Notes: generated from the sequence alone by a model not told the origin. A DNA stretch of 64,000 nt from a candidate division WS1 bacterium (GCA_012518355.1 JAAYSP010000072.1:7644-71643), one strand, 5' to 3'; positions 7,078-52,669 are shown, numbered from the stretch's first letter. Program-made: numbers and translations.

Positions 7078-8649
7078 TCAGCCTCCATTTTTCAACAGAC
7101 CATAGATCAGCGAATCGACTACTGCCTGCCAACTGGCCTCGATGATGTTTTCGTGGACACCGACAGTGCCCCAGCTATCCTCAGCGTCGGCGGTCTGCAC
7201 GAGCACACGTACCGCCGCTTCAGTGCCTTCATCAGCGCGCAGCACTCTGACCTTGTAGTCCACAAGACTCAGCTCTTCTAGTTTCGGGAACAGTTCCGTC
7301 AATGCCTTTCGCAGTGCATTGTCGAGCGCATTCACTGGCCCGGTACCCTCGCCGGCGGTGTGTACTTCTCTGTCTCCGACGGCTACCTTGAGAGTAGCCT
7401 CAGAGTACGGTTCGCTGCCCTCATCAGCTTTGTAGACGGTAATCCGATAGCCGTGCAGGTCAAATGGAGGTAGCAGGCCCTCCTTCAGGCGACGTGCCAG
7501 AAGCTCAAATGTAGCCTCCGCTGCATCAAATTCGTACCCGCTCTTCTCTAGATTCTTGACCTGCTCCAGTACTGTGGCCACCAGGGGGTCGTCACGCTGA
7601 AGATCAGGCCAGATACGTTGGAGCTTGTGCACGATGGTGGAACTTCCGGAGTAGTCCGAAACCAGGATGCGCCGACTGTTGCCCACAGTTTCAGGCTCTA
7701 CATGCTCAAACGATGAGGGTTCTTTCAGCACCGCGTTGACATGCATGCCTCCCTTATGGGCAAAAGCAGATGCCCCGACGTACGGCTGTCGAGTGTCGGC
7801 AGGGAGATTGGCGATCTCGCTCACGAAATGCGCCAACTCGGTTATCTCGGTCAACTGGCCTTCTGGTAGGCAAACTGTGTCCATCTTGAGCTCGAGGTTG
7901 GGGATGATGACACACAGGTTCGCGTTGCCTGACCGCTCGCCGTAGCCGTTGATGGTGCCTTGCACCTGGCTGCAGCCCGCCTGGACTGCGGCCATACTGT
8001 TGGCCACGGCCAGACCGGCATCGTTGTGACAGTGTATGCCAAGTGCAATCTGGCACTCTGCGGCTACCGTCTCGACGATCTCACGTATCTCATCGGGCAG
8101 TGAGCCACCGTTGGTGTCACACAGCACCAGTGCATCCGCACCGCCTCGCTGTGCGGCTCGCAAGCACTCCAGAGCATATGCCGCATCAGCTTTGTAGCCG
8201 TCAAAGAAGTGCTCAGCATCGAACATCACCTCTTCACGATGAGCCTTGAGGTAGGCGATGCTGTCCTCGATCATCTGCAGGTTTTCATCCAGAGAGACAC
8301 GCAGCACTTCAGTGGCATGGAAGTCCCAGCTTTTGCCGAAAATGGTGATGACTGGTGCGCGGCTTGCCAGCAAATCCTGAAGTTGGCTGTCGTCTTCGAC
8401 GTTGATGTTGCCTCGTCGAGTGCTGCCAAATGCCGTGATGCGCGCGGTTTGCCAGGACATATCAGCGGCACGCTGGAAGAATTCGCGGTCACGAGGATTT
8501 GTCTCGTTTGGCCAGCCGCCCTCGATGTATGCAACGCCCACTTGATCCAGCTTCTGCGCGATGCGCAGTTTATCCTCTACGCTGAATGCCACACCTTCTG
8601 CCTGGCAGCCATCGCGGAGAGTGGTATCATATACGTCAACTCTTTTCAT
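7078..8649 (-). CDS. cimA: (R)-citramalate synthase, Geobacter type (LeuA/HCS superfamily)
   Basis: MKRVDVYDTTLRDGCQAEGVAFSVEDKLRIAQKLDQVGVAYIEGGWP N-terminus and about 520 aa length match GSU1798-type CimA; AGGAGG SD 8 nt upstream of the ATG at 8649. Confidence 0.85.
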   Translation of the reverse strand: MKRVDVYDTTLRDGCQAEGVAFSVEDKLRIAQKLDQVGVAYIEGGWPNETNPRDREFFQRAADMSWQTARITAFGSTRRGNINVEDDSQLQDLLASRAPVITIFGKSWDFHATEVLRVSLDENLQMIEDSIAYLKAHREEVMFDAEHFFDGYKADAAYALECLRAAQRGGADALVLCDTNGGSLPDEIREIVETVAAECQIALGIHCHNDAGLAVANSMAAVQAGCSQVQGTINGYGERSGNANLCVIIPNLELKMDTVCLPEGQLTEITELAHFVSEIANLPADTRQPYVGASAFAHKGGMHVNAVLKEPSSFEHVEPETVGNSRRILVSDYSGSSTIVHKLQRIWPDLQRDDPLVATVLEQVKNLEKSGYEFDAAEATFELLARRLKEGLLPPFDLHGYRITVYKADEGSEPYSEATLKVAVGDREVHTAGEGTGPVNALDNALRKALTELFPKLEELSLVDYKVRVLRADEGTEAAVRVLVQTADAEDSWGTVGVHENIIEASWQAVVDSLIYGLLKNGG

Positions 8650-8701
8650 TTGTCTTTCCTCCTGGATACGCCGGGGCCTTTTCGGCTGCGATGTCACCGC
8701 T

Positions 8702-8743
8702 GAAACACAAAACTCCGTCCCTGTTCAATTCAGAGACGGAGTC
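8702..8743 (-). terminator. intrinsic terminator of the T-box leader: stem ACTCCGTC/GACGGAGT followed by UUUUGUGUUU
   Basis: Inverted repeat plus U-tract read on the reverse strand, 52 nt upstream of the cimA ATG. Confidence 0.7.
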
Positions 8744-9018
8744 ATCCGCGGTACCACCCTGGTTACTCCCCCCCGAAAAGGAGGAGCCACTTTGCCAACA
8801 CGGGCCACCTGCGGCCGATGTCGTCTTCAGGATAACGGTAGAAGCTCCGACGAAGTCTACTCGGCCGCCTGTTGTCGGCCAGGCCTTTCGATTCGCAGCT
8901 CGAGGGTGATATTCAGATCGGACTTACCTGCCCGCTCTCACCATCCGGGCTCGCTGTCCGGTATAAACCGACCCTACTTGTCCCCTTCACAGCTTTTACG
9001 TGTCACGACTTAAATTGT
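8702..9018 (-). promoter_or_regulatory. T-box riboswitch leader (tRNA-sensing transcription attenuator) upstream of cimA; candidate specifier AUC-A (Ile) at complement 8908-8910 (CUC-G Leu alternative at 8902-8904)
   Basis: Canonical T-box sequence AACCAGGGTGGTACCGCGG (complement 8746-8764) immediately 5' of and overlapping an intrinsic terminator; about 315-nt leader length; amino-acid biosynthesis gene downstream. Confidence 0.75.
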
Positions 9019-9053: not shown

Positions 9054-9070
9054 CACCACGATCACCCCAG

Positions 9071-9250
9071 TACTGTTTAACTCGCACACATACTGTCTCG
9101 CTCAGCAGACAGTGCTTCACTCACACACGTACTACCTCACCCATACAGGTACTGCTTCACCTGCCTGGGCATCGCTTCATCCACACAAGTACTGCTTCAC
9201 TCAAACACGTATTGTCTCGCTCAGCCAGGCAGTGCTTCACTTGTACAGGT
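9071..9250. repeat. nine tandem degenerate 20-bp direct repeats (plus-strand consensus aCTGcTTCAC tCAcACAcGT), two units containing TGTCTCGCTCAGC
   Basis: Units start every 20 nt from 9071 to 9231; array begins 6 bp after the upstream gene stop and ends 17 bp from the -35 of the T-box promoter. Confidence 0.75.
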
Positions 9251-9262
9251 AAGCGGGTCCAG

Positions 9263-11989
9263 TCAGTTGCCCTCCCCTTTACTCCATGAGGCGGTGCTGT
9301 ACATCGTGAAGCTCGGGTGGCCCGGTGCCGTCCTGATTGGGTAGAAGTGAAAGTGCGTCTCATCGCCGTCTACACTGAAATCAGGCGGTTCTGATACGTG
9401 CATGGTGATCACATCACCATCAGTTTCTAGTCGGTCAAGATACATCAGTGAGTACGCTCCGTCAGCATGAGTCACATGAATTGGTGTGCCTGCAGGCCAA
9501 TCTCCAGGATCTCTATCCGTGCTCACCCGCACAGCGGTGGAGCCCTCCAGGCTACCGCTGGCCTGCGCTATGTCACCGGTAACCGATGGAGCCGTTTCCA
9601 GCACAAAATCTCCCAACTGTAGAAGTGTGCCATCATGCATTTCGGCAGCAATCGGTCTGCCCTGCTGGAGCCTCACGATCGCAAACGCCGCATCTGTGAG
9701 CAGCCCAAATTGGTCGAGGGCGATGGGTTGCATAGGCTTTTGCAGGGGAGCGATAATCAGATCTGTATAGTCGCCGAAAACCACCTGTGCTCCCACGAGC
9801 TCACCGGCACAGGTCAGCGTGGAAAACGCCCCTAGCCCGGCCTCCTGCTCATAGGGCCACAGTAGAGCGGTGAAGCGACTTTGCAGGCCCTCTTCCCCAC
9901 GTCGGCGCACTATCACCAGTGGCTGACGAACCTGATCTACTCGGTCGGAATCTCTGTTGCACCGCTTTATGCTTGGTGCTGTGGCGAGGTAGTATTCACT
10001 GTCGGCAGCCGACAGGACGTGCAGCTCCATCTCTGGTTTGTCGGGCTCGACGTACGCAAAAGTAGCGACAAAGTGCTCCAGGTCGACCGCTTTTCGCAAA
10101 TCTTTGATCAATCCGTAGGGATTGAACTGAAGTCTGGCGCCTTCTCCAGGCTTCTCACTGGCGTTAGCTGCGTCTTCTGCCACCAGGTCAAAGCCGCCCT
10201 CGTTGATATACGGCACAAGCTTCCGACCGGGGCCCAATAGGCTGTACTCGAGCGGCTGTAGCGGCACATTCGCATCCGCTGTCTGGTCATGATCGGCGCT
10301 TCCACGCATAAGCCAGTCATGTTGTGAGCCACCATGCACATCGAAGAAATCTACCACATAGGCCGGCGCATCGGGGCGGTTCACAAGCACTGTAGAGCGC
10401 TGGTAAGTGCTGCAGGCTTCATAGGAAGGGGGACCGGCCATGTCAACGCAGACAGCCTGGCAGAGTTGCCCGGTGTGCCAGGTCCGTAGCGTACCGGCCC
10501 AGGGCACCTCGCGTGAGCCGTAGGATGCGGGAGTCTCATCTACGACCACCAGATTGTGGGCGGCTGCCGAGGCGGTGTAGCGGCGGTACTTGGTGTGAGT
10601 GTATCCCAGGTCAGAGACCAACTCATGACCGTATGCCCAGTAGGTAATATTGAGAGGATCCTGATGGGCATGTCCGTGAGATCCTGAGAAGTGCAACTGA
10701 GCTTCGGCCGCCAACGGCCCTGTCTCCGATTCGAGCACAGCATGCCCCATACTCCACAACAGTACAGATTTGGGCTGAGTTGACGGTGTCGTTCGATCGC
10801 CTGCCCAGGTATCGTGCACACATGCGTAGAATCCGTCGGGGTAAGCCAACGGGTTCATGGCGGTAAGCACCTTCTGAAGAAACAGCTCTGATGTGGATGG
10901 GTCATAGTCATCCAGCCGTTCACCCGTTGGTGGCCAGGTGTAGCCGGGTGGATCAGAGTATCCGTGCGCTGATGTGAACGCCGACCTGATGCCATTCGCA
11001 GTCTGCCTGTGGTAGGATACCGCTGCCTCGCTCCATACACCATCGGCCAAAAACATCTCGTTCAGCGTTCTGCGCAGAATGTTTACGCCTTCATGGACAT
11101 AGTCAGGCCGATCTACGATCCGCCCTGCAGATATCAGCCTTCGTGCCCATGATGGCGTCATGTTGCTGATGTGGCGCTCAAAAGTCAGTGTGAAGTCCGC
11201 CATAGCCTCTATGAGATCGGTCTTGACCAGTTCGCGGACGTCCACATTTGTCTCGGCGCTCAGGCGAGTGAATTCTTCACTATCATACAGGATGTCATAG
11301 GCCTGAAGCATGTCGACGTCGATTTCACCGTAAAACCAGGTTGAGCCCAGTTTCTGTGACAGATATGGAAAAGGCGGCTCATTTCCCGCCCACATGGGCC
11401 CACGGAAACTGTAGTCGCTTAGCCCGTGTATGGGTAGACCAGGGTAAATCTCCGCCATCCGGTGCAGTATCACCACCGCTCTGCGTGCGTATTTGGCGTC
11501 CTGCGTCTTCCACCATGCCAGGGCGCAGTTATAAGCCATGTTGGCCCAGTAGTAGCGAGCATGGTAATCAATCTTGGCCTGGAAGAAGTGATGAAAACCA
11601 TCCGGTCCGTCATAGTACGGGTAGCTTTGGATCTGGCCAGTTGGAGACAGGTGCTCATACACCCTATCCATGGGATACTTCTCGCTGGGATAGACGTGTC
11701 CGCAGTAGGCACATGTGAGCCGGTCAGGGGCATCTGTGCTCCACTCTAGCTGGCCACCCTGGCTGCCGGCAGTGCAGTTGGCACACTTGATCTCCAGGAA
11801 ACCAGCTTTCTCAGTGATCATATTGCGCACTTGTTGCTCTGTAAACGCGAGACACTCTTCGGCCTGCTTCACATAGGTGTCAGATACATCACCGGGCTCA
11901 TAGACCGGGTGAGACTGGCCGCGGGCAGGAATTGCCACAAGTGTTAAAGCAGGGATGAGACAGATCAGGCTGTGAAGAGCACACTTCAT
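9263..11989 (-). CDS. secreted heparinase II/III-like polysaccharide lyase family protein
   Basis: Signal peptide MKCALHSLICLIPALTLVAIPARG; alginate-lyase-like N-domain plus Hepar_II_III-like region (SGSHGHAHQDPLNITYWAYGHELVSDLGY); start at the ATG at 11989 with a GAGAGGA SD. Confidence 0.75.
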   Translation of the reverse strand: MKCALHSLICLIPALTLVAIPARGQSHPVYEPGDVSDTYVKQAEECLAFTEQQVRNMITEKAGFLEIKCANCTAGSQGGQLEWSTDAPDRLTCAYCGHVYPSEKYPMDRVYEHLSPTGQIQSYPYYDGPDGFHHFFQAKIDYHARYYWANMAYNCALAWWKTQDAKYARRAVVILHRMAEIYPGLPIHGLSDYSFRGPMWAGNEPPFPYLSQKLGSTWFYGEIDVDMLQAYDILYDSEEFTRLSAETNVDVRELVKTDLIEAMADFTLTFERHISNMTPSWARRLISAGRIVDRPDYVHEGVNILRRTLNEMFLADGVWSEAAVSYHRQTANGIRSAFTSAHGYSDPPGYTWPPTGERLDDYDPSTSELFLQKVLTAMNPLAYPDGFYACVHDTWAGDRTTPSTQPKSVLLWSMGHAVLESETGPLAAEAQLHFSGSHGHAHQDPLNITYWAYGHELVSDLGYTHTKYRRYTASAAAHNLVVVDETPASYGSREVPWAGTLRTWHTGQLCQAVCVDMAGPPSYEACSTYQRSTVLVNRPDAPAYVVDFFDVHGGSQHDWLMRGSADHDQTADANVPLQPLEYSLLGPGRKLVPYINEGGFDLVAEDAANASEKPGEGARLQFNPYGLIKDLRKAVDLEHFVATFAYVEPDKPEMELHVLSAADSEYYLATAPSIKRCNRDSDRVDQVRQPLVIVRRRGEEGLQSRFTALLWPYEQEAGLGAFSTLTCAGELVGAQVVFGDYTDLIIAPLQKPMQPIALDQFGLLTDAAFAIVRLQQGRPIAAEMHDGTLLQLGDFVLETAPSVTGDIAQASGSLEGSTAVRVSTDRDPGDWPAGTPIHVTHADGAYSLMYLDRLETDGDVITMHVSEPPDFSVDGDETHFHFYPIRTAPGHPSFTMYSTASWSKGEGN

Positions 11990-12176
11990 GTTCGATCGTC
12001 CTCTCACTTGTGCTCATACGGATGAAATGCTTTAATTGCTATAGTCATGGTCTTAAGTCTTGGCCTACAGTCTATGATGTTCTACACATGCACGTCCAGT
12101 CCTAGTTTTGCGGTTATAGTCTACCGAGATACCATGAATTCGAGATGGATGTCTTCCTTTGCGGATGTGATTGCCT

Positions 12177-39522: not shown

Positions 39523-41901
39523 TCAGCCTTCTATGTCCCAGAAGAACTCGAAAAACTGGGAGACGCTGAACTTCATCCAGCCGCTGCTCATGTTCACCAG
39601 CATCAACGGGGTCTGTATCTGCCGCGCTATTTGAGCTGTCTTGTCGCCCCAGACCTTGCGACGCACCCAGCTTTCGCGCGAAGCACCGACGATAACAAGA
39701 TCGAACTCCTCAGACTGTTCGGCTATTGTCTCTACCACTTCTCCGGCTTCAACACGTATCTGAAAGCGCTGTTCAGCCAGCGGAGTTTCTACGTCTTGTT
39801 TATGCTTTTCCGTATAGCGCGCTACCGCCTCACGCAACTCCGTAGCTCGCTGGGCCTGGAGGGCTGGCGGCATGTCCCGATCCACGACATGCAGCAGGCG
39901 GATATACGAGTCAGAACGGTCCGCCATGACAGCGGCGAACTGGGCGATCAGGCTGGCATGCTGGGGATGCTGCACAGGTACCAAAATACGTTTGGCCGGT
40001 ACCTTCACATCGCCGCGCACCACTACCACGTTTGCATCGGCGTTTTTCACGATGCGATCGATGGTAGAGCCGATAACTGTACGCGGATCGCGGCTACGGC
40101 CGGCCCAACCCATAACTACAAAATTGGCGTGAGTGTCCTCCACGGTGTCCACAATCGCATCCGCAGCCCGATGGCCTATCCGCACCAGGCTGTTTGGCAC
40201 AATCCCCAGGTCTTCAGCCTGCGCGGAGACTTCATCCAGCAGTGGCCGACTGTCCCCTATGAAGTCGCGCCCGACGCTCACTGGCAGTTGATCCGGTACC
40301 GTGATTACGTTCAGAAGCATCAGATTACCTGGCTTCAAACGAAGCAAGCGATGGCTGACCGCCAGCAGGCTTGGAGCTGTCTGTGGATTAGCTATGGGCA
40401 CGAGAACCGAGAACTTCCGTCTCTCGATCTGGGGCATCTGCGCTGCGACAACAGGGCTCACATCGCGTTCACGTTCTCGTTTGGAGGCATAGAAGTGATG
40501 GATCAGCAATCCTGCGGCAATCCAGCCGGTGGTAATCAGGGCGGCCGTAGGCGAGAAAGCGAAAGTGAACACGATCAGCACAAGCTGCAGGGTGATGGCC
40601 ACCACCTGCACCCAGGGGAAAAACGGCAGCATGTAGCCGTAACGCAGCTTGTCGCCATACTTGCGCCGTATAGTGATGGAGGCCACGTTGACCTGAAGAA
40701 ACAGTAGCATAAACATGATGCCTGCAGATGCAGCCACCGCCTCCAGAGGGATGCTCACTGCCATCAAAGTGATGATCACTCCGCTGAAGATGAGTGCGAC
40801 ATGAGGGACCCGGGTCCGCGGATGGACGGCGGCAAACATATCGGGGAGGTTGCGGTCGCGTCCCATGGCGAACGCCACTCGTGTGGAAGAGTATGTCGTG
40901 GCGTTCAACGCGCTCATCGTAGAGAGCAGTGCGCCAATCGAGAGCAGTATGGTGAAGGGCCCCATGAAGCTTCGTGCGGCGCGTGCCAGAGCCACGTCGG
41001 GATCGGTCTGACTAAGCCATTGCCAGGTGGTGATTGCCCCTTCACTGGCGGGCACCTGCACAGCCCCAAGTGCAACAAAAGCCACTGCGATATAGGTGGG
41101 TATGACGATGATCATCGCCAGGAAAACTGCTTTGGGTATGTTCTTGCGCGGATTGCGGACCTCTTCACCCGCCTGAGCGATAATTTCGTAGCCCTCGAAC
41201 GCAATGAAAGTCAATCCCATAGCTATGAAAACACCGGTGATGCCGTTGGGCGCAAATCCGCGCACGCTATCATCGAGTCCGGGGAGATGGAGGTTCGAAA
41301 AGTGGCTCATCTGCTCAGGATTGCGCATGATCGCCCATAGCCCTGCGATGACGAAGATCCAGATGATCAGCATCTTGCCCACGGTGACGAAATTGCCTGC
41401 TCGCCCGGTTTCAGAAGCACCGCGGAAATTGACGTAGACGAACATCAATGCTATCGCAGCCGCAATCGCCTTCTGTAACGCTGGGCCTTCAAGTCCAAAG
41501 GCAGGAATGTTCAAGTCACGAAGCACGAGCGCGAAATAGGCCGCGAAACCCAGGGCGTACACACTGCCGACTACCGTATGAGAAAACCAGTCAATCCAGC
41601 CTGCAAGAAATGCATTTGCGCCAGGCAAGCCCTGTTTCACCCACTGATATCCACCGCCTGCAGTGGGTATAGCGGAGCCTAATTCGGCGTATACCATACC
41701 TGTCAGCAGGGTGACCACGCCGTTGAGGCCGAACGCAAGCAGCAAGGCGGGCCCTGCTTCTCCGGCAGCGATACCGGTCAGGACGAAAATGCCGGCACCA
41801 ATCATGCCGGCAACCCCAATCATGGTAGCATCGAAGAGCCCCAAATCACGACTAAGGTCGCTTTGGGGCTCTTGTGCACTTCCTTGCGAAACTCCTGCCA
41901 T
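39523..41901 (-). CDS. APC-superfamily amino acid permease fused to two C-terminal universal stress protein (UspA) domains
   Basis: 12-TM permease core, then a tandem USP-like alpha/beta region. Confidence 0.8.
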   Translation of the reverse strand: MAGVSQGSAQEPQSDLSRDLGLFDATMIGVAGMIGAGIFVLTGIAAGEAGPALLLAFGLNGVVTLLTGMVYAELGSAIPTAGGGYQWVKQGLPGANAFLAGWIDWFSHTVVGSVYALGFAAYFALVLRDLNIPAFGLEGPALQKAIAAAIALMFVYVNFRGASETGRAGNFVTVGKMLIIWIFVIAGLWAIMRNPEQMSHFSNLHLPGLDDSVRGFAPNGITGVFIAMGLTFIAFEGYEIIAQAGEEVRNPRKNIPKAVFLAMIIVIPTYIAVAFVALGAVQVPASEGAITTWQWLSQTDPDVALARAARSFMGPFTILLSIGALLSTMSALNATTYSSTRVAFAMGRDRNLPDMFAAVHPRTRVPHVALIFSGVIITLMAVSIPLEAVAASAGIMFMLLFLQVNVASITIRRKYGDKLRYGYMLPFFPWVQVVAITLQLVLIVFTFAFSPTAALITTGWIAAGLLIHHFYASKRERERDVSPVVAAQMPQIERRKFSVLVPIANPQTAPSLLAVSHRLLRLKPGNLMLLNVITVPDQLPVSVGRDFIGDSRPLLDEVSAQAEDLGIVPNSLVRIGHRAADAIVDTVEDTHANFVVMGWAGRSRDPRTVIGSTIDRIVKNADANVVVVRGDVKVPAKRILVPVQHPQHASLIAQFAAVMADRSDSYIRLLHVVDRDMPPALQAQRATELREAVARYTEKHKQDVETPLAEQRFQIRVEAGEVVETIAEQSEEFDLVIVGASRESWVRRKVWGDKTAQIARQIQTPLMLVNMSSGWMKFSVSQFFEFFWDIEG

Positions 41902-41965
41902 GCACTACCTCCAGCGGAGACAATCCGTGAATAGCTGTCGGGCCAACACGGATTGGACGAGCCCC

Positions 41966-42295
41966 CTATCCCGCAATAACCTTGTCCAGGCTCGAAGCCA
42001 GGTCTTCTTCGGAGTGCACGCCGACTATCGTCTCAACAATCTCACCGTTGTTGAAGATGGCCATGAAGGGAATTGCACGAATCTGATACTTCTGAGCCAG
42101 CTGTTCGTTGCTGCCATCAGAGATGTTGACACGAGCAATCACGGCCTGGTCACGGTACGTCTCGGCAACCTTATCCAGCACTGGATGCATCATCATACAC
42201 GGGCCACACCAGGGGGCCCAAAAATCCACCAGTACTGGTTTTTCAGCCTGCAAAACCTGTGCATCAAAATCTTCATTTGTGACATCAATCGGCAT
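41966..42295 (-). CDS. trxA: thioredoxin
   Basis: WCGPC active site; 109 aa; AGGAGGA SD. Confidence 0.9.
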   Translation of the reverse strand: MPIDVTNEDFDAQVLQAEKPVLVDFWAPWCGPCMMMHPVLDKVAETYRDQAVIARVNISDGSNEQLAQKYQIRAIPFMAIFNNGEIVETIVGVHSEEDLASSLDKVIAG

Positions 42296-42412
42296 GAGAT
42301 TATCCTCCTGACCATTTGCGTTATACTATAGGCTATAGTTGGTGTAACAGTATGACATAACGACATTTGAGCTGATCTTTGTTATCGAAACAGGCAAAGC
42401 ATACACAGCATC

Positions 42413-42988
42413 TTATTGTGACAGAGTTTTGGTGATTGCGTTGTTCAACTGCTGCTCGATGTCCGGCGCAAGCCCCTCCCACCTGTCAATCACTGTACCA
42501 TTGGAGAAAAGTAGCACCGTAGGTATCGCGCGGATCGAGTACTCAGAAGCCAACTGTGGTTCGTCATCTATATCAACGCGCCCCATGATTGCCTTCCCGG
42601 CAAACTCACTGGCCAGGCCGTCCATAATTGGGTGCATTTTTTCACACGGCCCGCACCAGGGGGCCCAGAAATCCACCAGAACAGGTGTCGAAGCGCCAAG
42701 AACGCTGTCCTGGAATGACGCTGTGGTGAAGTCAACAACTGCAGCTTCCGCCGCGCTCTCTTCGGCCTCACCAGCACTGTCTACCGCCTGTTCGGCCTCA
42801 GGTGCTTCCGCTTCTTCGACGGGAGACGGTAGTGGTGGCAGCTCGGCTTCAACGCCGGCGACATCTGTTTTTCCCGGGCATCCCGAAATCGCAAATGGCA
42901 CCACGAGAAGCAGCATGGCTATCAGTAGACCTGCGAGTGGCCTCGCACATCGAGACCGCCTGAAAGTATCGTACCAGGTAGATATCAA
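42413..42988 (-). CDS. membrane/lipid-anchored thioredoxin with acidic Ala/Glu linker
   Basis: Lipobox-like AISGC, then WCGPC thioredoxin domain. Confidence 0.75.
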   Translation of the reverse strand: MISTWYDTFRRSRCARPLAGLLIAMLLLVVPFAISGCPGKTDVAGVEAELPPLPSPVEEAEAPEAEQAVDSAGEAEESAAEAAVVDFTTASFQDSVLGASTPVLVDFWAPWCGPCEKMHPIMDGLASEFAGKAIMGRVDIDDEPQLASEYSIRAIPTVLLFSNGTVIDRWEGLAPDIEQQLNNAITKTLSQ

Positions 42989-43068
42989 TTCCCTACCTCC
43001 TTGTGACTAAATCGTAGAATTGGGCAATTCTACCACCTTTGCACACTTGACGCAACTGCAACACCACC

Positions 43069-44127
43069 TCAGACATGGATTGCCTCGTAAGCAGTGTCGT
43101 ACATAGCCACGATGTTTTCCGGTGGGCTGACCGCCTGGATGTTGTGGCATGGGGCCAGGATGTATCCCCCTCCGCAACCGAGGGTAGCCAGGTTATCGAG
43201 CACTTCCTGACGCACCTCATCCACAGTGCCAAAGGGGAGTGTGTACTGATTGTCCATCGCTCCGTGAAAGACAATCTGATCGCCGAAGTCGCGCTTGAGC
43301 GCTTCTCGTTCCATCCCTTCGCAACGCCACTGCACCGGGTTGAGCACATCCATGCCGATCTCGATCATATCCGGTATCACTTCGCGCACCGCACCGTCAC
43401 TGTGATGGAACACGTAGGCTCCTGCGTCATGAACCAGGTCCATCATCCGCTTCATCCGTGGCAGGAGAAACTCGTGCATGTGACTGCGCGACATCAGAAG
43501 TGACTGCTGCGTACCGAGGTCCTCGGCCACGTAGCTGAACAGTACTTTTCCCGGTATTTGCTCGAAGATGCGTTCCGTACTTTTGTAGCATAGGTCGAAT
43601 AGTCTGTCCAAACAGTAGTGGACGATATCGGGGTGAAGCACCAGATCCATCAGGGCCTGCTCCTGCCCACGCAAATGGCAGTAGGTTAGGAACGGTTCGG
43701 AGCCCCCACCACGTACAGGGCAATCAGGGAGCTGATCAGTCTGCGCGGGAATGTGCGTATAGTTCCACCAATCAGGGCTGGGCCAGCGGTACTCAGAGTC
43801 TATCTGACTTACGGTCTCAAATTCGGCCAGAGGATGAAATACGCATTCTCGATAGCTCCCCGTGGCGTAAGCGACATCGCGATAGCCGCAGCCGAACACG
43901 TCAAGCTCGGGGCTGATCGGCGGCCCGACATAGCGGCCGGAAACAGCCACCACACGATCTATGTGGAGTCGCTCATACAGTTGGCTGTGGTTCTGCAAGT
44001 CCAGATGATCGAGCAGTTTCTTCGTCGCTTCCGGAGTTGCCCAGTAGTCAGTTGGGACCCTATCTGTTGGCTCTCTTTTCAGCACAGCCATCCAACGCTC
44101 TCTGGGCGTCATCTGTTCTGTGGCCAT
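43069..44127 (-). CDS. uroporphyrinogen decarboxylase (URO-D) family protein, MtaA/CmuA-like
   Basis: URO-D fold length and composition; start at the ATG at 44127 with a GAGGTGA SD (the ORF-track start at 44253 has none). Confidence 0.7.
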   Translation of the reverse strand: MATEQMTPRERWMAVLKREPTDRVPTDYWATPEATKKLLDHLDLQNHSQLYERLHIDRVVAVSGRYVGPPISPELDVFGCGYRDVAYATGSYRECVFHPLAEFETVSQIDSEYRWPSPDWWNYTHIPAQTDQLPDCPVRGGGSEPFLTYCHLRGQEQALMDLVLHPDIVHYCLDRLFDLCYKSTERIFEQIPGKVLFSYVAEDLGTQQSLLMSRSHMHEFLLPRMKRMMDLVHDAGAYVFHHSDGAVREVIPDMIEIGMDVLNPVQWRCEGMEREALKRDFGDQIVFHGAMDNQYTLPFGTVDEVRQEVLDNLATLGCGGGYILAPCHNIQAVSPPENIVAMYDTAYEAIHV

Positions 44128-44569
44128 GTGTACTATCACCTCACGCGGAGATCGAAAGCTGTTATCACTACATGGTGGCATGGATTCACTGACAGACTTG
44201 AGCAGATGTTGCAGGCATGGTATCATCATTTCAGATGTGTGCATAGTAGACACTGGATGCCGCGCAGATGATCGTCACTCCTCGGCCTATCTCCACGCTT
44301 GACCTGTCAGGCGGTGGCTGTAGACCGGCAAACAGCTGTATCTCGTCCCCTGGCATCTTGTGTCGCGACCAGATACAGAACTACTCATGCAAATGCTATC
44401 TGATTTACTTCTCCAGTGGCATAGCCATCAGCCACTGCTTTACGCTGCCGTGACCGTGCTTTCGATGGTCGGGCTCGGCACGCTCTTCGCCCTGCTGACT
44501 AACTGGACGAGCGCGCGCAATCGGCCGTCTACCCGCAATTCACAAGAGCCCGATGCCGGTGATAAGTAA

Positions 44570-45613
44570 GTGCATTTCCCGATAGCCGGAGTAACGGTCA
44601 ACCCGTACTATCTGATCGGCCTCGGCGTATTGGTCGGTGTATCCGGCGGCTTTATGGGCATGGGCGGCGGTTGGTTGCTAGTGCCGGCCTTGAGCGCTCT
44701 GGGCACACCGATGAACATAGCAGTAGGGACATCCCTTGCCCAGATGCTGGGTGCTGCCATCGTGTCAGCGATGCGTCACTGGCAGTTTGGCAACATATCA
44801 TTTCGCATCGCGACAATCATGATCCCAGGCAGCCTGCTGGGAGTGGAGTTCGGAGCGTTCATCATCGAACTGCTCAAGGGGCAGGGACCTACCCAGGTTG
44901 ACTTCGGCATTGGTGTGACTTTTGCAGGCATTCTGACCCTGGTATCGCTGTTCGTCCTCCGCGACGCGCTGAAAGACTATACCAGAGCACGGCAGTTGGC
45001 CGCGTCTCATCCAGGTGACAGCATCCACAAGTACCATGTGACCCCGGTTCGTCCTATCCCCCGTCGCCTGCAGGCCATCAAGCTCAAGCCTTGCATCGCC
45101 TGCCCCATCTCGGGCATAGAATCGATTTCAGTTTGGGCAATTCTGGCCGTAGCATTCATCATGGGCACACTCACCGGACTGCTCGGCATCGGTGGAGGGC
45201 TGGTCGGGTTGCCACTACTGGTCTATGTCATCGGCGTGCCAACTAGAGTGGCAGTAGGCACGGTAGTTCTCACCGTAGTGGTGGCCTCAGGGTTTGGTAC
45301 CTTTTCACATGCATTGAAGGGAAATGGTGACCTGTTGATGGCGCTGTTCATCTTCATCGGCGCCGCGATAGGCTCACAAATTGGCGCCCTGGCCACACGT
45401 TATGTGTCGGGCATCTTCATCCGTGCACTTTTCGCCGTGGCTGCCCTTGGTGCAGCGGCATCCGTAGTGCTGAACACCTTTCTGGGGCTGCGTACCGCGG
45501 CTCTCGTCGTGGTACTGATGGTGGGCGTACTCACGTGTGCACTTATCATCCAGCTACTGTTCACTGGCCTGTTACGTTCGCGCCGTCAGAGGCTAGACAG
45601 CAATTCGCCATAG
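44570..45613 (+). CDS. TauE/SafE-family (DUF81) anion exporter
   Basis: Duplicated 4-TM repeats with GxGGG motifs; GTG start. Confidence 0.75.
   Translation: MHFPIAGVTVNPYYLIGLGVLVGVSGGFMGMGGGWLLVPALSALGTPMNIAVGTSLAQMLGAAIVSAMRHWQFGNISFRIATIMIPGSLLGVEFGAFIIELLKGQGPTQVDFGIGVTFAGILTLVSLFVLRDALKDYTRARQLAASHPGDSIHKYHVTPVRPIPRRLQAIKLKPCIACPISGIESISVWAILAVAFIMGTLTGLLGIGGGLVGLPLLVYVIGVPTRVAVGTVVLTVVVASGFGTFSHALKGNGDLLMALFIFIGAAIGSQIGALATRYVSGIFIRALFAVAALGAAASVVLNTFLGLRTAALVVVLMVGVLTCALIIQLLFTGLLRSRRQRLDSNSP
45521..45613. repeat. direct repeat copy 1 (about 93 bp, about 90% identical to 45870-45962); encodes the TauE C-terminus
   Basis: Read directly in sequence. Confidence 0.8.
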
Positions 45614-45869
45614 CCGCGCAACGTAGACATAGGGTGGATCGCACCTGTAGGCTTCGCGCTGTGTCTCATGGAGGTATTGCCAGAGACGGGCACACGTAAA
45701 CCGCTAGCCTCCATCCTCCCACCTGCCTCTTCAGGCTCGTAGCACACTCGCACCGCCAGGGCCGAGCAGCAATCATGTGTGGCCATAGCCGCGAGAGCAC
45801 GGTCACGGTTGTGAGACTCCCCTTGAAAGCTTCACGTTGTGCCTGGTGTGGTGGTACCGGGTACTAACA

Positions 45870-45962
45870 GTGGGCGTGCTCACGTGTAGTACTTATCATC
45901 CAGCTACTGTTCACTGGCCGTTACGTTCGCGCCGTCAGAGTCTGGGCAGCAATTCGCCATGG
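45870..45962. repeat. direct repeat copy 2; its reverse strand encodes the C-terminus and stop of the ECF T component
   Basis: Read directly in sequence. Confidence 0.8.
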
Positions 45963-46735
45963 CCTTGCAGGCGCAACCATATGCTTAGAGCTGCCGCACA
46001 AACGATCAGTACCATAGCTCCTACATCGGCCCACCTCACGGCAAATGTACGCAACTCAACGCGCCTGGCAGTAGCCATGAGTCCACGTGCTTCCAGAGCG
46101 CGCGACAGGTTGTCGGCCTGCCTTAGCGCATATCCGAATACTGGGGCGGCAAGGCTCAGATATCTACGTAAACGTGTCATCAGTCCGCCACTATCCAGAT
46201 CCAAACCGCGTGCGCGTTGAGCATCCTTCACAGTCTGCACCGTCGCGAGGAAGCTGGGCAGCAGTCGGAATGCAAGCGACAAAGCTACTGACATACCGCC
46301 TGGCAGCCCCAGCCTGCGCAACGCAAAGGTGAAGTCTTCGGGACGGGTGGTAGTCACAAACACCAGGCCGAACACCAGTAGAGCGGTAATTCGGCAGCCC
46401 ATCGCCACTCCATAGAGTACAGATTGCTCAGATATAGTCAGCGGGCCCAGTTCTGCCAGCACGTGTGGCTCCTCGACATCCAGCAGGAACAGTGACCACA
46501 TAAGTGAAGCCATGATGAACAGCACGACTAGAAACGCGCCTAACTGACGCAAGTTTGGCTTCCCCCCTGCCGCAATCAGCAATAGCAGGGCAACTGCGAG
46601 AACTACGGCCTCCCACAAAGGAAGATTGAAGGCCATAGCAGGGACAAAAAGCAGGATCAGCCCCAACAGCTTCACCACGGGGTGCAACCGATGAATAGCA
46701 GTGTCAGCGCTGATGAAAAGAGAACTGGTTTGCAT
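45935..46735 (-). CDS. ecfT: ECF transporter T component (EcfT/CbiQ family)
   Basis: CbiQ-family transmembrane architecture; ATG at 46735 after AAAGGAA. Confidence 0.8.
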   Translation of the reverse strand: MQTSSLFISADTAIHRLHPVVKLLGLILLFVPAMAFNLPLWEAVVLAVALLLLIAAGGKPNLRQLGAFLVVLFIMASLMWSLFLLDVEEPHVLAELGPLTISEQSVLYGVAMGCRITALLVFGLVFVTTTRPEDFTFALRRLGLPGGMSVALSLAFRLLPSFLATVQTVKDAQRARGLDLDSGGLMTRLRRYLSLAAPVFGYALRQADNLSRALEARGLMATARRVELRTFAVRWADVGAMVLIVCAAALSIWLRLQGHGELLPRL

Positions 46736-46797
46736 ACGTATTCCTTTCAATCGCTCCAGACGGCACCAAACAACACGGCAATCAATCCCAGGTCTCG

Positions 46798-49377
46798 CTA
46801 GCTCAAACGCACATACTCGCCGAATTCTTCCGGGCTCAAGAGTGGCACTCCAAACAGGGCCATCGAAATCTCGACCACCGCCGGTATACGCTGGCAGGCG
46901 GCCTGCAGAGCCCTCTCATCTGCTACCACATCGCGCACCGCACCATCAACCACCACCTGTCCTTCCCGCAGCAAAATGAGCCTGCTTGCGTAGCGCATAG
47001 CCATCTCTGTATGGTGTGTGACTACGATTATGGTATGGCCTTGTGTCTGCAATTGACGCAACAGTTCCATCATGGCCTCTTGCTGCGGGACATCAAGGCC
47101 GGTGGTGGGCTCGTCAAACACTATGATGCCGGGTTCGCAGGCCAAAATGGCTGCCAACGCTACGCGCTGTCTCTGGCCTCGGGTCAGTGCGAATGGATCA
47201 GCGGTCTCGAGGCCCACAAGCTCAGTGACTGCTATAGCGTCGGCTACCAACCGTGTGACCTCCTCGCGGCTGCGGCCGAGGTTGCGCGGCCCAAACGCTA
47301 CCTCATCGAAAACCGTGTCGGCGAAAATCTGGTTGTCAGGGTTCTGATACAGATAGCCAATCTGAGATGCCAGGTCGGTTACACTCATAGCTGCAACGTC
47401 ACGTCCGTTCACCTTCACAGTGCCCTGATGTGGTGTCAACAGGCCCATCATCAGCTTGCACAGAGTGGTCTTGCCCGAACCGTTGGGCCCGAGAATGGCG
47501 ACGAACTCACCCTGCCGCACCTGCAGCGATACCTTCTGGAGAGATGCAGGACCGCCATAGCTGTGAGAAACCAGGTCAACAGCGACGGCTTCACCGCCTG
47601 CGAAGGGCTCGCGCTCACTATCGCGTCGCCTCGTCAGAGCAGGCTCATCCAGCACTGCCGCACAATCACGCAGCGTGCGCACTGCCTCCGCGGCTGTCTC
47701 CGGCACATCGGGCAGGCCGACGGCTTGCGCTATCTCGGCCAGTGGATGGGGCCGCAAGCCAACGGCTCGAGCACGTGCCACATCTCTAAGCAAGTGGCCG
47801 CAGGCTCCGTCATACGCGACAGCCCCTTCGCTGAGGACCAGCAGAGGGTCTGTGCCTGTCCCGTGCGTCGGATCATCTGTAGCCAACAGAATGGTGCGCC
47901 CCTGAGTCGCTAGGCTCTCAACGGCGTCTATAACTTGAGCTCGACCCAGGGGATCAAGGTCAGTGGTCGGCTCGTCAAGCACCACTATGGGCGGTTCGGC
48001 AGCCATCACTGCAGCAAGCGCCAGGCGTTGTTTCTCGCCTCCTGACAGTGTAATCGGATCGCGTCCCAGCAGATGCCCAAGCCCCAGCGTGTCGAGCCAG
48101 TGATTTACTCGCTCACGCATAGCCTCTCTTGGTACTCCACGGTTTTCAAGCCCGAACGCGATCTCCAACTCTACATCGCTGCAGAAGAGTTGGGTCTCGA
48201 AATCCTGAAACACCAATCCCGCAACTTGAGACAGGTCATCCACCGATTGCGACCTGGTGTCCTGACCTCCAATGTGCACGGTTCCAACAAAATCACCGGA
48301 CTGCATGTGGGGGATCACGCCGTTCATGCACAGGCACAGCGTAGATTTGCCGGCACCTGTTCGCCCCATGAGTAGGCGCATTTGGCCTGACTTTTGCCGG
48401 AAGCTGACTTCATGTAGTGCCGGGGTGATGCTGTCACCATAGGCAAAATGCAGGTCAGAGACCGCTATCACACCATCGCTTACATCGGTAGGCTTTTCGT
48501 CTGACACTCCAGCAGTAGTAGCCTGCGAGCGCCTCGAACCGATTCGAGCCATCAGTGAACTACCCAACACGATTAGCAGACTACACCACATACCTAGCTC
48601 TCGAAGCGACATTTCTGCGGGCATTAGCAGAGACACCGGGATGGGTTTACCGTCAGCATCTAGAGTCGGCTCCAGCGTGAGCATCCCCAGTTTGCTCCCC
48701 CAGGAAGCGAGTGCGCCGGTCTTATCGAGTGCTGCAAACACACCCACTATGCAGGCCGCCATCAGGACAAGCCCGGCAATTGGCGTTATCGGCGTCGTCT
48801 TGATGTCGTCCTCGTGCATAATCTGTGAGTACGTCAAGTTCCATTTATGCGCTCGCGGATACATCAGTATCAGCAGAGGGATGCCGAGTACGATTCCCGC
48901 AATGCTATTGTTGATAGTGATGATGCTCGTGAGCACAACATATGGCACGAGACCCAGCAGATCCAGTCCGGTGCCGATGACGACTGCACAGGCAGCGCTA
49001 CCAAGGAAAATCACCAGTACCAGTAGAGGCACTTCCCGCCAGGTACCTCGGGGTGGGTTGAAACCCTTGAACATAACCCACAGCCTATATGGCACATAGG
49101 CGAAGAGGAAATTGCCAATCAGGCCGAAAAAACTGCCTGGTCCCACGGTACCAAAAAAATCGGCCATGAGATTGCCGATAGCACATCCCCATGCCGCCGC
49201 TGGTCCAAACAGTAGCCCGCAGACTACAGGGATTGCGTTACCGGGCCGCAACTCCGTGAAACCCGGGACGATCGGGATGATTTTGAACGGTATCAAAATC
49301 GCCGCATAGATGGCCGCTGAGAGGGCCACGAGCACCACCATCTTGCTGCTGCGCCACATCACAAGCACATCTCGCAT
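46798..49377 (-). CDS. ECF transporter triple fusion: N-terminal S-component-like membrane domain (about 280 aa) plus two ABC ATPase domains (EcfA-EcfA')
   Basis: Two complete sets of Walker A (GRTGAGKST, GPNGSGKTT), signature (LSGGEKQR, LTRGQRQR) and Walker B motifs after a 6-7 TM domain; GAGGAG SD before the ATG at 49377. Confidence 0.8.
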   Translation of the reverse strand: MRDVLVMWRSSKMVVLVALSAAIYAAILIPFKIIPIVPGFTELRPGNAIPVVCGLLFGPAAAWGCAIGNLMADFFGTVGPGSFFGLIGNFLFAYVPYRLWVMFKGFNPPRGTWREVPLLVLVIFLGSAACAVVIGTGLDLLGLVPYVVLTSIITINNSIAGIVLGIPLLILMYPRAHKWNLTYSQIMHEDDIKTTPITPIAGLVLMAACIVGVFAALDKTGALASWGSKLGMLTLEPTLDADGKPIPVSLLMPAEMSLRELGMWCSLLIVLGSSLMARIGSRRSQATTAGVSDEKPTDVSDGVIAVSDLHFAYGDSITPALHEVSFRQKSGQMRLLMGRTGAGKSTLCLCMNGVIPHMQSGDFVGTVHIGGQDTRSQSVDDLSQVAGLVFQDFETQLFCSDVELEIAFGLENRGVPREAMRERVNHWLDTLGLGHLLGRDPITLSGGEKQRLALAAVMAAEPPIVVLDEPTTDLDPLGRAQVIDAVESLATQGRTILLATDDPTHGTGTDPLLVLSEGAVAYDGACGHLLRDVARARAVGLRPHPLAEIAQAVGLPDVPETAAEAVRTLRDCAAVLDEPALTRRRDSEREPFAGGEAVAVDLVSHSYGGPASLQKVSLQVRQGEFVAILGPNGSGKTTLCKLMMGLLTPHQGTVKVNGRDVAAMSVTDLASQIGYLYQNPDNQIFADTVFDEVAFGPRNLGRSREEVTRLVADAIAVTELVGLETADPFALTRGQRQRVALAAILACEPGIIVFDEPTTGLDVPQQEAMMELLRQLQTQGHTIIVVTHHTEMAMRYASRLILLREGQVVVDGAVRDVVADERALQAACQRIPAVVEISMALFGVPLLSPEEFGEYVRLS

Positions 49378-49512
49378 CTACGGCAACTCCTCATCGATAT
49401 GAACTGGTCTTCGCGTACGAAGTCAGTATTCCACTCCGAGACCGCCTTTCCCTGTCTGTTGCAGCTAATAAACCAGGATGTTTACCTATTGACCTTGCAT
49501 ACTGGTGGATTT

Positions 49513-51603
49513 ATGGGCTTACTTACGGCTTTTTGCGCCGCCTGGAGGCAAACCGTAAAACGGCGTGGAGGAATTATCCGTACTAAGGGCGAAGTGGCTC
49601 CTGCCGCAGCAAGTACCGTATTCCGTTGCATTGCTGGAGGACTTGGCGTGACGTCTCGCACTCTGCTTCTATCGGTTGTCCTGGCTCTGGCTGCGATAGC
49701 GTGGATGCACCAGGCCAGTTTGGTACAAACCCCCGGACAGATATATGCTCCGGTGTACCTTCTTTCGGTGCCTCCGGTGCCGGCGATTTTTTGTCTACTG
49801 CTACTGGTGATCTTGGCACCTGTGCTGCCTCGACTAAGTAGGAAGCTCAAAAGCTTCAGCAAACAAGAGATGCTGCTGATATATATGGTCCTCGTAGTCG
49901 CTGTTCCGCCGGTGACTTTCGGCGTCGTCTCCAGTATGCTTCCGGCAGCATCGGCAGCAAATTACTTTGCCGCCCCTGATAACAACTTCCAGGCACTGGC
50001 CGACAATCTGCCGAAGTGGTTCGCTCCTCAGAATCCAGAGATCATCCGCACCATGTATGAGGGCAGCCCGGATGGCACCATCCCCTGGCGGCAGTGGGCG
50101 TATCCTCTGGCGATGTGGACCGGTTTCATGGCTCTGCTTTATTTCACAGGTCTATGCCTGGTCACGATTTTCCGCAAGCAGTGGTCTGAAAACGAACGGC
50201 TTCGCTACCCACTGCTTTTCATACCTCTGAGCATCGTCGAGAAAGAGGCACCGGGAAGCCACACGCAGTTTTTTCGCAATTCGCTTGTGTGGATGGGGAT
50301 CGGCATCGTGGTACTTCACCACGCTCTAAACATAGCCAATGCCTATAACCCCGCAGTCATGGCACTGAAGGACCGCTACGGATTGGGTGCACAGATCTTC
50401 ACCGAGTACCCGTGGACCGCGTACCGAGGCATCACCTTTTTCCATAGACCACAGGTCATCGGTCTGGCCTACTTCGTCCCCCTCGACATACTCTTTTCCG
50501 GGTGGTTCTTCTTTCTCCTGCAGCCCACTCTGCGACTGATTTCCGACCTGTTCGGCTTCACTGCCTCGGCGGGTTTTCCCCACACCCTGCCGCAATCTGC
50601 GGGGGGCTACGCAGGCATGACCCTGATACTGTTCTGGGTAGCACGCCACGAAATCGTGAAAATGCTTCGCAAAGCTTTCGGAGGCGACCGCAGCATTGGC
50701 GATTCCAGTGAGCCGATGTCACACCGTGCTGCACTCATCGGAGCTCTGGGCGGTATGCTGGCGATAATCATATGGGTAAGCGCGATGGGAGCCAACTGGG
50801 CCCATGCTACAGCCTACTTTCTCATGGTCGTTGGCTTTGGCCTGGTATATGCTCGCATACGTGCAGAAGCTGGCATACCTACCATGTGGGGCTATTTTGG
50901 CGGCCATGTGCGTACGCTAAGATACTTCCTCGATGTACGACAAATCATGCCCCAGAGCTCTCTGTCCAACCTGGCTGTCCTGACGTCTTTCGACTGGCTG
51001 ACTGAGGGCTACTTTCCGGGCCAGTGGGGATATGTGGCAGAAAACCAGAAACTGGCTGAAGACATCAAAATCAAGCCTCGAATTATCGTGCCTGTGATGA
51101 TGGTTGCCTTCGTCCTGGGCTGTGTTTTTGCATACTACCTGATCCTGCAATCGTACTATACATACGGCGCCATGGTATTGCATGGCGGCACCACTCGCGG
51201 CGGATATGCGATTATCAACGCAGTGAACGCCTGGACTCAGGCGTCATCTATGGTAGACACTGGAGGTGCGCCCAACCGAGAGTACGCCATCGCCATGATT
51301 AGCGGTGCCGCTTTAACCGTTCTCCTGGTGCTGGGCAGATGGCGCTGGCTGCGGCTGCCCTTTCACCCCCTCGGGTATATCTCCTGCATCCAGTACGGGT
51401 ACTGTCTATGGGGGCCGTTTTTCGTGGTCTGGATCATCAAGGGCCTGGTGCACCGGCTGGGAGGGGCACGTCTCTATCGTCAATTGATGCCGTTTTTTCT
51501 CGGACTTGCATTTGGGGATCTACTGTGTGGTGGCATAACCTGGATTCTCATGGCGCTTTTGGGCCCTGATATCACAGCGGGTTACATGGTGCAGTTCGGA
51601 TAG
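49513..51603 (+). CDS. hypothetical large polytopic membrane protein (about 697 aa)
   Basis: Long hydrophobic ORF divergent from the ECF gene; start set at the internal ATG at 49513, because the ORF-track ATG at 49399 is only 21 bp from the divergent gene and is followed by rare codons. Confidence 0.55.
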   Translation: MGLLTAFCAAWRQTVKRRGGIIRTKGEVAPAAASTVFRCIAGGLGVTSRTLLLSVVLALAAIAWMHQASLVQTPGQIYAPVYLLSVPPVPAIFCLLLLVILAPVLPRLSRKLKSFSKQEMLLIYMVLVVAVPPVTFGVVSSMLPAASAANYFAAPDNNFQALADNLPKWFAPQNPEIIRTMYEGSPDGTIPWRQWAYPLAMWTGFMALLYFTGLCLVTIFRKQWSENERLRYPLLFIPLSIVEKEAPGSHTQFFRNSLVWMGIGIVVLHHALNIANAYNPAVMALKDRYGLGAQIFTEYPWTAYRGITFFHRPQVIGLAYFVPLDILFSGWFFFLLQPTLRLISDLFGFTASAGFPHTLPQSAGGYAGMTLILFWVARHEIVKMLRKAFGGDRSIGDSSEPMSHRAALIGALGGMLAIIIWVSAMGANWAHATAYFLMVVGFGLVYARIRAEAGIPTMWGYFGGHVRTLRYFLDVRQIMPQSSLSNLAVLTSFDWLTEGYFPGQWGYVAENQKLAEDIKIKPRIIVPVMMVAFVLGCVFAYYLILQSYYTYGAMVLHGGTTRGGYAIINAVNAWTQASSMVDTGGAPNREYAIAMISGAALTVLLVLGRWRWLRLPFHPLGYISCIQYGYCLWGPFFVVWIIKGLVHRLGGARLYRQLMPFFLGLAFGDLLCGGITWILMALLGPDITAGYMVQFG

Positions 51604-52142: not shown

Positions 52143-52669
52143 CACCATCTCTTCCGCCCGTGCCTGCATCTGTAGCTACATCATATGGGCGGCAAGTGTC
52201 TGCTCTTAGCCTGGGCGCAAGTCAAGGGGGCGACCTTGAAGTTGCTAAGAACAGACCAGGGTAGTAGACTGCATGTGAAGCTATGTCTAAGATGCAAGCA
52301 TTGTTACTATACAACCCTGCACGCAGTATAGTGTAGCTTTAGGCTGCTGTCAAGTACAGTTTTCTACGATAGCATCACAGGAACCAATATGCTCATCAGG
52401 TAACATGGCGGCTGCTGTGCGTAGTTGAATGCAACAAAACTCGATGCATTCCAACCGCCAGTCATCGGCATTTGTGCCGAGAAAATCGGTGCTGGACATA
52501 TGGCTGCCACTTTACATGGATTTTCTACGGCTTTCCTGTTATACTTGCATATCAAGGAACTGCCTGGTCACACCTGTACGTTAGGGATAATGGCACGGGC
52601 TTGCTACTTTTCGTGTCTAACGTTCGAAGGCTGGGACATACTCTTCATACTGATGGGAGGTGTTGGATC

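Follow-up and report, generated by a model that had tools for sequence, protein, structure and literature searches.

Gene overlaps turn over at a high rate in bacteria, and work on them has centred on how overlaps are created and not on how they are lost (PMC4161906). In synthetic recoded genomes, overlapping genes have been separated by duplicating the overlapping sequence (PMC9952402). Here we describe a locus in a candidate division WS1 bacterium at which the same operation appears to have taken place naturally. The locus lies within 64,000 nucleotides (nt) of one strand of GCA_012518355.1 (JAAYSP010000072.1:7644-71643; this whole stretch is called the window, and positions are counted from its first letter). 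It comprises the 3′ ends of two convergent genes, one for a TauE/SafE-family membrane protein (TauE) and the other for the T component of an ECF transporter (ECF-T), together with direct repeats that run across and between them. We read the locus as an evolutionary scar, in which a shared gene end was repeatedly duplicated and the two genes were pulled apart without any new functional element arising, and we put the probability of this reading at roughly 85%.

Compared with engineered overlap refactoring (PMC9952402), both the operation and its result are the same, in that each gene becomes free to change independently; the separation seen here is on the other hand natural and multi-step, concerns a convergent 3′/3′ overlap, and has left behind decaying junk and a recombinogenic array. 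With duplication-degeneration-complementation the locus shares head-to-tail repeats, relatives that have a single copy, and copies that each keep one function and lose the other. What has been partitioned, however, are the 3′ ends of two genes on opposite strands with 28 nt in common rather than the functions of one gene, and the units are only ~175 nt long, so that no whole gene was duplicated. Variable copy number and hybrid copies with breakpoints in the most similar stretch are in turn features of concerted evolution. The turnover of convergent overlaps by movement of stop codons (PMC4161906) shows the same volatility, the two genes described here overlapping by 28 or by 4 nt or lying 92 nt apart depending on the lineage, but in the present species the overlap would have been lost through duplication, with neither a new stop upstream nor a point mutation as the cause. 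The process as a whole is ordinary molecular evolution, made up of tandem duplication, complementary degeneration, and concerted evolution via crossover or conversion. A full-text literature search turned up no natural loss of a bacterial overlap by duplication, although absence there is not proof. The locus offers a traceable natural example of such a loss, a process that is little documented (PMC4161906): the ancestral state is found in relatives, the relic ends are still readable, substitutions mark the release from constraint, and recombination is present as strain polymorphism. It is chiefly of use as a clean case study, the natural counterpart of the engineers' separation of overlaps, and as a caveat for annotation.

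The features of the locus are compiled in Table 1. Both genes are assigned with confidence to their families, TauE with 137.6 bits against a Pfam cut-off of 32.6 (PF01925) and ECF-T with 116.7 bits against a cut-off of 25 (CbiQ, PF02361). The ECF-T open reading frame (ORF) spans 271 amino acids (aa), and public gene calls begin five codons later, at the ATG at 46735 (266 aa). In the window the stop codons of the two genes are 321 nt apart. Gapped local alignment defines two copies of a repeat, A1 and A2, of 105 nt each, which are 89.6% identical with 9 mismatches (blastn E ~1e-33) and lie head-to-tail in the same orientation with a period of 349–350 nt. The alignment contains two single-base indels that compensate for each other (+1 near 45888 and −1 near 45920), so that register is regained after 31 nt. 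The left boundary of A2 carries, in strains of the window type, a 7-nt microduplication (GGTACCG|GGTAC), a feature that a microhomology junction could have left. Apart from tRNA genes and a pair of thioredoxin paralogues, no comparable local repeat was found elsewhere in the window. A preliminary description made from the sequence alone had reported a direct duplication across the 3′ ends of two convergent genes, and the alignment bears this out. The bounds given there (45521-45613 and 45870-45962, 93 bp with one indel) are slightly too narrow, and the insert that it put at 256 bp measures 244 nt between the copies; this middle piece is referred to below as M.

Table 1. Coordinates of the two genes, the repeat units and the relic gene ends in the window.
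Feature	Position	Strand	Basis or remark
TauE/SafE-family membrane protein gene, 347 aa	44570..45613	+	Pfam PF01925, E=6.9e-40
Unit U1, ~175 nt, functional TauE 3′ end	45441..45615	+	whole-unit alignment with U2, from which the approximate left boundary is inferred
A1, well-conserved 105-nt repeat core	45511..45615	+	89.6% identity to 45860-45964
29-nt stretch common to both copies	45541..45569 and 45891-45919	+	crossover site of the hybrid middle copy of three-copy strains
Relic 28-nt overlap in A1	45586..45613		real TauE stop 45611-45613; minus-strand relic TGA 45586-45588
Unit U2, old decayed ~175-nt copy; A-like part ~45689-45792, ending in GCCATAGCCGCG	45616..45792	+	nhmmer and shuffle alignments
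Left decayed part of unit U3 (spacer x2)	45793..45859	+	alignment; weak likeness to TauE sequence upstream of A
A2, TauE pseudo-3′-end on plus strand; final 30 nt are the real ECF-T end on minus strand	45860..45964		
Copy-1-type patch in A2	45915..45929	+	site table; the extent is a minimum, with last-copy-type sites on either side at ~45890 and ~45941
Relic 28-nt overlap in A2	45935..45962		real ECF-T TGA 45935-45937 (minus); TauE stop position now TGG
ECF transporter T component (CbiQ family)	45935..46750	-	Pfam PF02361, E=1.5e-33
Upstream operon partner of ECF-T: QueT-like ECF S component fused to two ABC ATPase domains, 859 aa	46798..49377	-	

Each copy of the repeat has kept the ends of both genes, with the real and the relic stop codon 28 nt apart, and in each copy one of the two gene ends is intact and the other degenerate. 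A1 holds the final ~34 codons of TauE and its TAG stop; the preliminary description had placed the stop and 30 codons in this copy. The opposite strand of A1 encodes a pseudo-C-terminus of ECF-T, ending in '...LRGYGELLSSL*' (ORF 45586..45786 on the minus strand), as recognised by comparison with the C-termini of the outgroup proteins. The situation is reversed in A2, the minus strand of which carries the final nine codons of ECF-T and its TGA stop; the preliminary description had likewise put the end of ECF-T there. The plus strand of A2 contains a TauE tail that is frameshifted by the +1 and −1 indels ('VLTVGVLTC/STYHPATVHWP/LRSRRQSLGSNSP'), and the former TauE TAG now reads TGG (45960-45962).

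The duplicated structure of this uncultured species was found in no fewer than 14 metagenome assemblies that are independent of one another, coming from different runs, assemblers and projects. The loci that span both copies include L002-L004, L017-L021, L023, L027-L029 and L031, and further similar places exist. Every spanning locus that was fetched is duplicated, with copies that differ by 10–20% plus indels, and among the surveyed assemblies of this species there was no single-copy allele. The window corresponds to L002, with 100% identity over the region. The same TauE protein and close variants of it are encoded by numerous contigs, assembled independently, from anaerobic-digester and biogas metagenomes; an identical protein is labelled 'candidate division WS1' at NCBI, and relatives in the genome collection are named Armatimonadota. 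Several contigs stop inside the repeats (L005, L006, L022 and L030), and the repeats can thus break short-read assemblies at this locus. One listed contig of 2.65 Mb, FZPS01000091.1 (GCA_900198705.1), aligns with no more than 6,862 bp of the window (L001 1529-8390, equal to window 41098-47959), the match being flanked by unrelated TPR and UQ_con (E2-like) genes. This contig looks like a string of concatenated metagenome pieces, and because of this and of the short 6.9-kb match it was not used as evidence of assembly quality.

The ancestral arrangement can be read from relatives, in which the gene order is kept, with URO-D and TauE followed by the convergent ECF-T and ECF-S/A/A genes. All of the outgroup loci (L014/L024-L026, L007/L015, L008/L016, L009, L010 and L011) have a single copy at the orthologous site. 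In the closest outgroup lineage, represented by L014 and L024-L026 from four assemblies, TauE is 80% and ECF-T 87% identical to the proteins of the window, and the two genes overlap by 28 nt from the TauE TAG to the ECF-T TGA. Overlaps of 28 nt at homologous positions are also present in L007/L015 (TauE 64%, ECF-T 73%) and L008/L016 (TauE 60%, ECF-T 71%). In L009 and L011 (TauE 51–52%, ECF-T 74–75%) the overlap is 4 nt, and in L010 (TauE 46%, ECF-T 66%) the genes are separated by a 92-nt gap with a hairpin. The preliminary description had proposed that the two genes once overlapped inside the shared segment and had called for a comparison of the locus in related genomes; because three outgroup lineages are single-copy and have exactly 28 nt of overlap, we take it as confirmed that such a 3′ overlap was the ancestral state and that it is this overlap which is now duplicated. 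The gap in L010 (4659-4750), the most distant of the relatives, contains a GC-rich hairpin between A- and T-runs (AAAACCCGGGCTTTGAAGTCCGGGTTTTACTTTT) that looks like a bidirectional terminator, and nothing like it is present in the window species.

The origin of M was addressed with a profile built from seven strain copies of it, which was searched with nhmmer against a 121-kb target consisting of the window with M masked and all outgroup loci, on both strands. The top two matches were A2 (45876-45966, E=0.0023) and A1 (45551-45615, E=0.21), and the overlap region of L007 was also listed. In local alignment, 45713-45790 is collinear with 45545-45615, a result reached by 0 of 300 shuffles. The likeness extends to whole units: 45616-45792 aligns end to end both with 45441-45615 (z=5.7) and with 45793-45964 (z=7.1), in each case with 0 of 1000 dinucleotide shuffles doing as well. 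The sequence GCCATAGCC recurs with the same 175-nt spacing, and GCCATAGCCGCG is found at 45607-45618, at the end of A1, and at 45782-45793, at the end of the third, decayed unit. The preliminary description had placed two copies of this last motif in the middle piece, and only the second of them lies there, the first being the end of A1. Since M is homologous to the repeat by both the profile search and the whole-unit alignments, the locus is, as judged from these alignments, an array of three tandem units of ~175 nt, of which U1 contains the TauE end, U2 is an old decayed copy and U3 contains the ECF-T end. Tandem Repeats Finder reported nothing on 45000-46500, because the middle unit is too diverged. 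A protein likeness between 'MEASGL' in a 66-aa ORF and 'LEARGL' in ECF-T was considered and dropped, as it is not collinear with the DNA alignment.

The statement of the preliminary description that the middle piece has no ORF holds in a loose sense: mechanical ORFs of 46–66 aa do cross M, but none has a Pfam match, gene calls there vary between strains, and the piece contains no supported ORF. The ORFs of 127 and 66 aa that run across the repeats arise artefactually from the relic ends, and annotating them as genes would be a mistake.

Strains of this species differ in the number of copies, and the unit that varies today is ~350 bp. Three loci from three Joint Genome Institute (JGI) samples, L018, L019 and L020, which encode the TauE variant P0121, have the arrangement A-M-A-M-A with three good A copies. 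Their flanks are 95–97% identical to the window and their TauE and ECF-T stops are 672 nt apart; the two middle pieces, M1 and M2, are 96% identical and are therefore distinct sequences. Every copy was compared at 28 sites that separate the TauE-proximal from the distal type. In the middle copy of L018 the sites are of the distal type up to 45540 and of the proximal type from 45565, with a single switch inside the 29-nt stretch 45541-45569, and this copy has the make-up that is expected of the product of an unequal crossover. The A2 copies of the window and of L021 are of the distal type except at the equivalents of 45565-45580, which are of the proximal type and include a 1-nt deletion, after which the distal type resumes. 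This patch indicates gene conversion or, equivalently, a reduction from three copies to two in which the last copy crossed over with a hybrid middle one. The patch is absent from the last copies of L004, L023 and L018, which are 77–84% identical to A1. The 90% identity of A1 and A2 in the window is, on this comparison, partly a product of recent homogenisation, because A2 carries a copy-1-type patch and the copies of unconverted strains are only 77–84% identical. M differs by 7–11% between strain groups as against 3–5% for the coding flanks, that is, it changes ~1.5–2 times faster, as expected of unconstrained DNA.

Two further variants were seen at the locus. In L021 (2731-3633) the TauE upstream sequence, A2 and ECF-T are of the window type (100%), but M is 100% identical to that of L023, a strain of ~95% identity. 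Such a mosaic points to homologous recombination at this locus between strains. The protein P0123 (JGI, 283 aa) is a TauE variant from the same species that diverges wholly past residue ~261 and ends early (…LMALFIYVCKPALFSSALTLLFIGCIPW), a hint that TauE carries an insertion or a rearrangement in this single sample.

The differences within the former overlap were polarised with the outgroups. In A1 the derived bases lie at 45592 (T→G) and 45597 (G→A), which change Ser to Arg and Gly to Asp in TauE. On the opposite strand the same bases would change R to S and P to S in ECF-T and convert its C-terminal LPRL into LSSL, whereas an LPR[L/I]* C-terminus is invariant in 6 of 6 outgroup lineages and in the real ECF-T of this species. 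The distal copy is derived at the equivalent of 45612 (A→G), which changes Tyr to His in ECF-T and turns the TauE TAG into TGG. Each gene has, by this polarity, fixed a change that would be damaging to its partner if the two still overlapped. After a recombinational return to one copy, therefore, ECF-T would end in LSSL or else TauE would read through into a long tail, which is visible as the 127-aa ORF 45837..46220, and we infer that the damage to one of the genes would make the separation a ratchet. It is conceivable, though on balance doubtful, that the separation was itself fixed because it relieved an antagonism between the TauE tail and the LPRL end of ECF-T, and that it then became irreversible through changes lethal to the frame of the other gene. 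If true, this would be a rare case in which the resolution of an overlap by duplication can be watched at the population level, with copy number still polymorphic.

The history that we propose starts from an ancestor in which the convergent TauE and ECF-T genes had 28 nt of their 3′ ends in common, as the outgroups show. A segment of ~175 nt, comprising the TauE 3′ end, the overlap and a few bases beyond it, would have been repeatedly duplicated in tandem, slippage or unequal recombination being the presumed mechanism. TauE stayed on the proximal unit and ECF-T continued to use no more than the ~30 nt at the end of the distal one, while the rest of the extra units became non-coding and decayed, as is seen in the frameshifts, the lost stop and the barely recognisable middle unit. 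The cores that have stayed alike still recombine: unequal crossover in the identical 29-nt core gave rise to the A-M-A-M-A arrays of some strains, and a conversion or copy-reduction event to the copy-1-type patch in A2 of the window. Once apart, each gene fixed terminal changes that would have been penalised under the overlap, as the outgroup polarity shows. One or more old duplications of ~175 nt, the distal core having later been homogenised with the proximal core as the source, are the most economical account.

Several observations weigh against this history. No intermediate lineage with two units was found, because a database of 5.8 billion proteins lacks TauE homologues in the range from 80% to ~96% identity. 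The likeness of spacers x1 and x2 to the TauE upstream sequence is only marginal (z=1.0–2.4, with 29–30 of 1000 shuffles doing as well at z=2.4), and the proposed history does not rest on it. The 105-nt core (77–90%) is far better preserved than the adjoining ~70 nt of U3 and than U2 (~60%), and a single event followed by uniform neutral decay therefore does not fit; the later homogenisation of the core that we invoke is directly evidenced only for the small patch. Finally, in one test 45709-45770 matched the ECF-T 3′ region of L014 with z=5, although the profile search did not recover this match.

The last of these points belongs to an alternative in which one tandem duplication of ~349 bp took in the TauE upstream flank, the overlap and the ECF-T 3′ flank, and M consists of the two useless fragments, since decayed; the preliminary description had offered a duplication of ~348 bp in this sense. 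Besides the match of M to the L014 ECF-T region (score 17, z=5.0, 0 of 300 shuffles), the sequence to the left of A2 resembles the TauE upstream sequence of L014, and a ~350-bp unit is what varies in copy number today. The flanks that such an event requires are, however, undetectable in M when it is compared with the window's own genes (z=1.8 for the ECF-T 3′ end and z=−0.9 for the TauE upstream sequence), despite 80–90% identity in the adjacent core. For the same bases the profile search puts the repeat core, and not the L014 ECF-T, as the best match, and both the whole-unit alignments and GCCATAGCC are in the 175-nt register, so we regard this single duplication as unlikely. That the repeat was wrongly expanded during assembly has next to no probability. 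All of the data are short-read metagenome assemblies and FZPS01000091.1 shows that pieces can be concatenated, but because the same structure recurs in at least 14 assemblies across runs, assemblers and projects, with copies that are 10–20% diverged, the repeat is not an artefact of assembly; assemblers do not invent such differences and indels, and strain-specific variants agree across samples. These assemblies answer the worry about an artefact that the preliminary description had raised.

The preliminary description had also considered insertion of a foreign piece and a search for copies of it resembling a miniature inverted-repeat transposable element (MITE). If a mobile piece of 244–256 bp had inserted, be it a MITE or what is left of an integrative element whose attachment site (att) copies the end of the gene, the flanking repeats would be a target or att duplication, and a non-coding piece between direct repeats would be accounted for. 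This view could also call on a 9-nt imperfect (8/9) inverted repeat at 45616-45624 and 45834-45842. This inverted repeat is short, its right arm lies 17 nt inside the boundary, and M has no terminal inverted repeats at its boundaries; a duplication of 105 nt far exceeds the target duplications of transposons. M occurs nowhere else in the window, and searches of plasmid and phage collections gave no match for it. In the attL/attR sites of integrative elements, too, the 3′ end of a gene occurs twice in direct orientation, one end functional and one displaced, but here there is no integrase, transposase or cargo between the repeats, the neighbours being URO-D, TauE and ECF components, and a second gene on the opposite strand uses the displaced copy. 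The intervening DNA itself comes from the same gene end, M being homologous to the repeat, and the A-M-A-M-A arrays with a crossover hybrid are a product of tandem-repeat recombination, which together make a mobile insert highly improbable. Another possibility is that the spacer or the non-coding A2 is a selected element, such as a terminator region of the convergent genes or a 3′ untranslated region that is antisense to the end of the TauE mRNA and thereby couples the two transporters, and that selection keeps A2 similar to A1. Strains differ little over the final ~85 nt of M and the left portion of A2, and the ancestral ECF-T termination signal must presumably have lain in the TauE coding sequence, so that a duplicate could carry it. 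Yet no promoter- or terminator-like site was found in the spacer, its folding is no better than that of shuffled sequences on either strand (z=0.2 and 1.1), six strain copies of M contain 0 compensatory pairs, and in Rfam at E<=1 the region 44000-47500 gave only a chance small-RNA match inside the TauE coding sequence. Copy number is moreover variable, 8 of 16 positions in the central part of copy 2 differ between strains, and M overall diverges faster than the coding flanks. We therefore think it very unlikely that selection for such an element maintains the repeat, and prefer the repeated duplication and decay of a shared gene end.

Other features of the window lie outside the repeats. The 859-aa protein encoded next to ECF-T, a fusion of an ECF S component (QueT / ECF-ribofla_trS) with two ABC domains, is found beside ECF-T with 60–74% identity in all outgroups with DNA that reaches the gene. 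A tandem array of approximately nine 20-nt units (TGCTTCACYCAnACAnGTAC-like) occupies 9060-9245, between an ORF at 8561..9013 on the plus strand and the 3′ end of a 914-aa ORF at 9263..12007 on the minus strand. Divergent from the ECF operon, a gene at 49399-51603 on the plus strand encodes a 734-aa protein with DUF6785 and DUF6784 domains (E=8e-114 and 2e-21), and it is followed by an ABC ATPase gene at 52472-53614.

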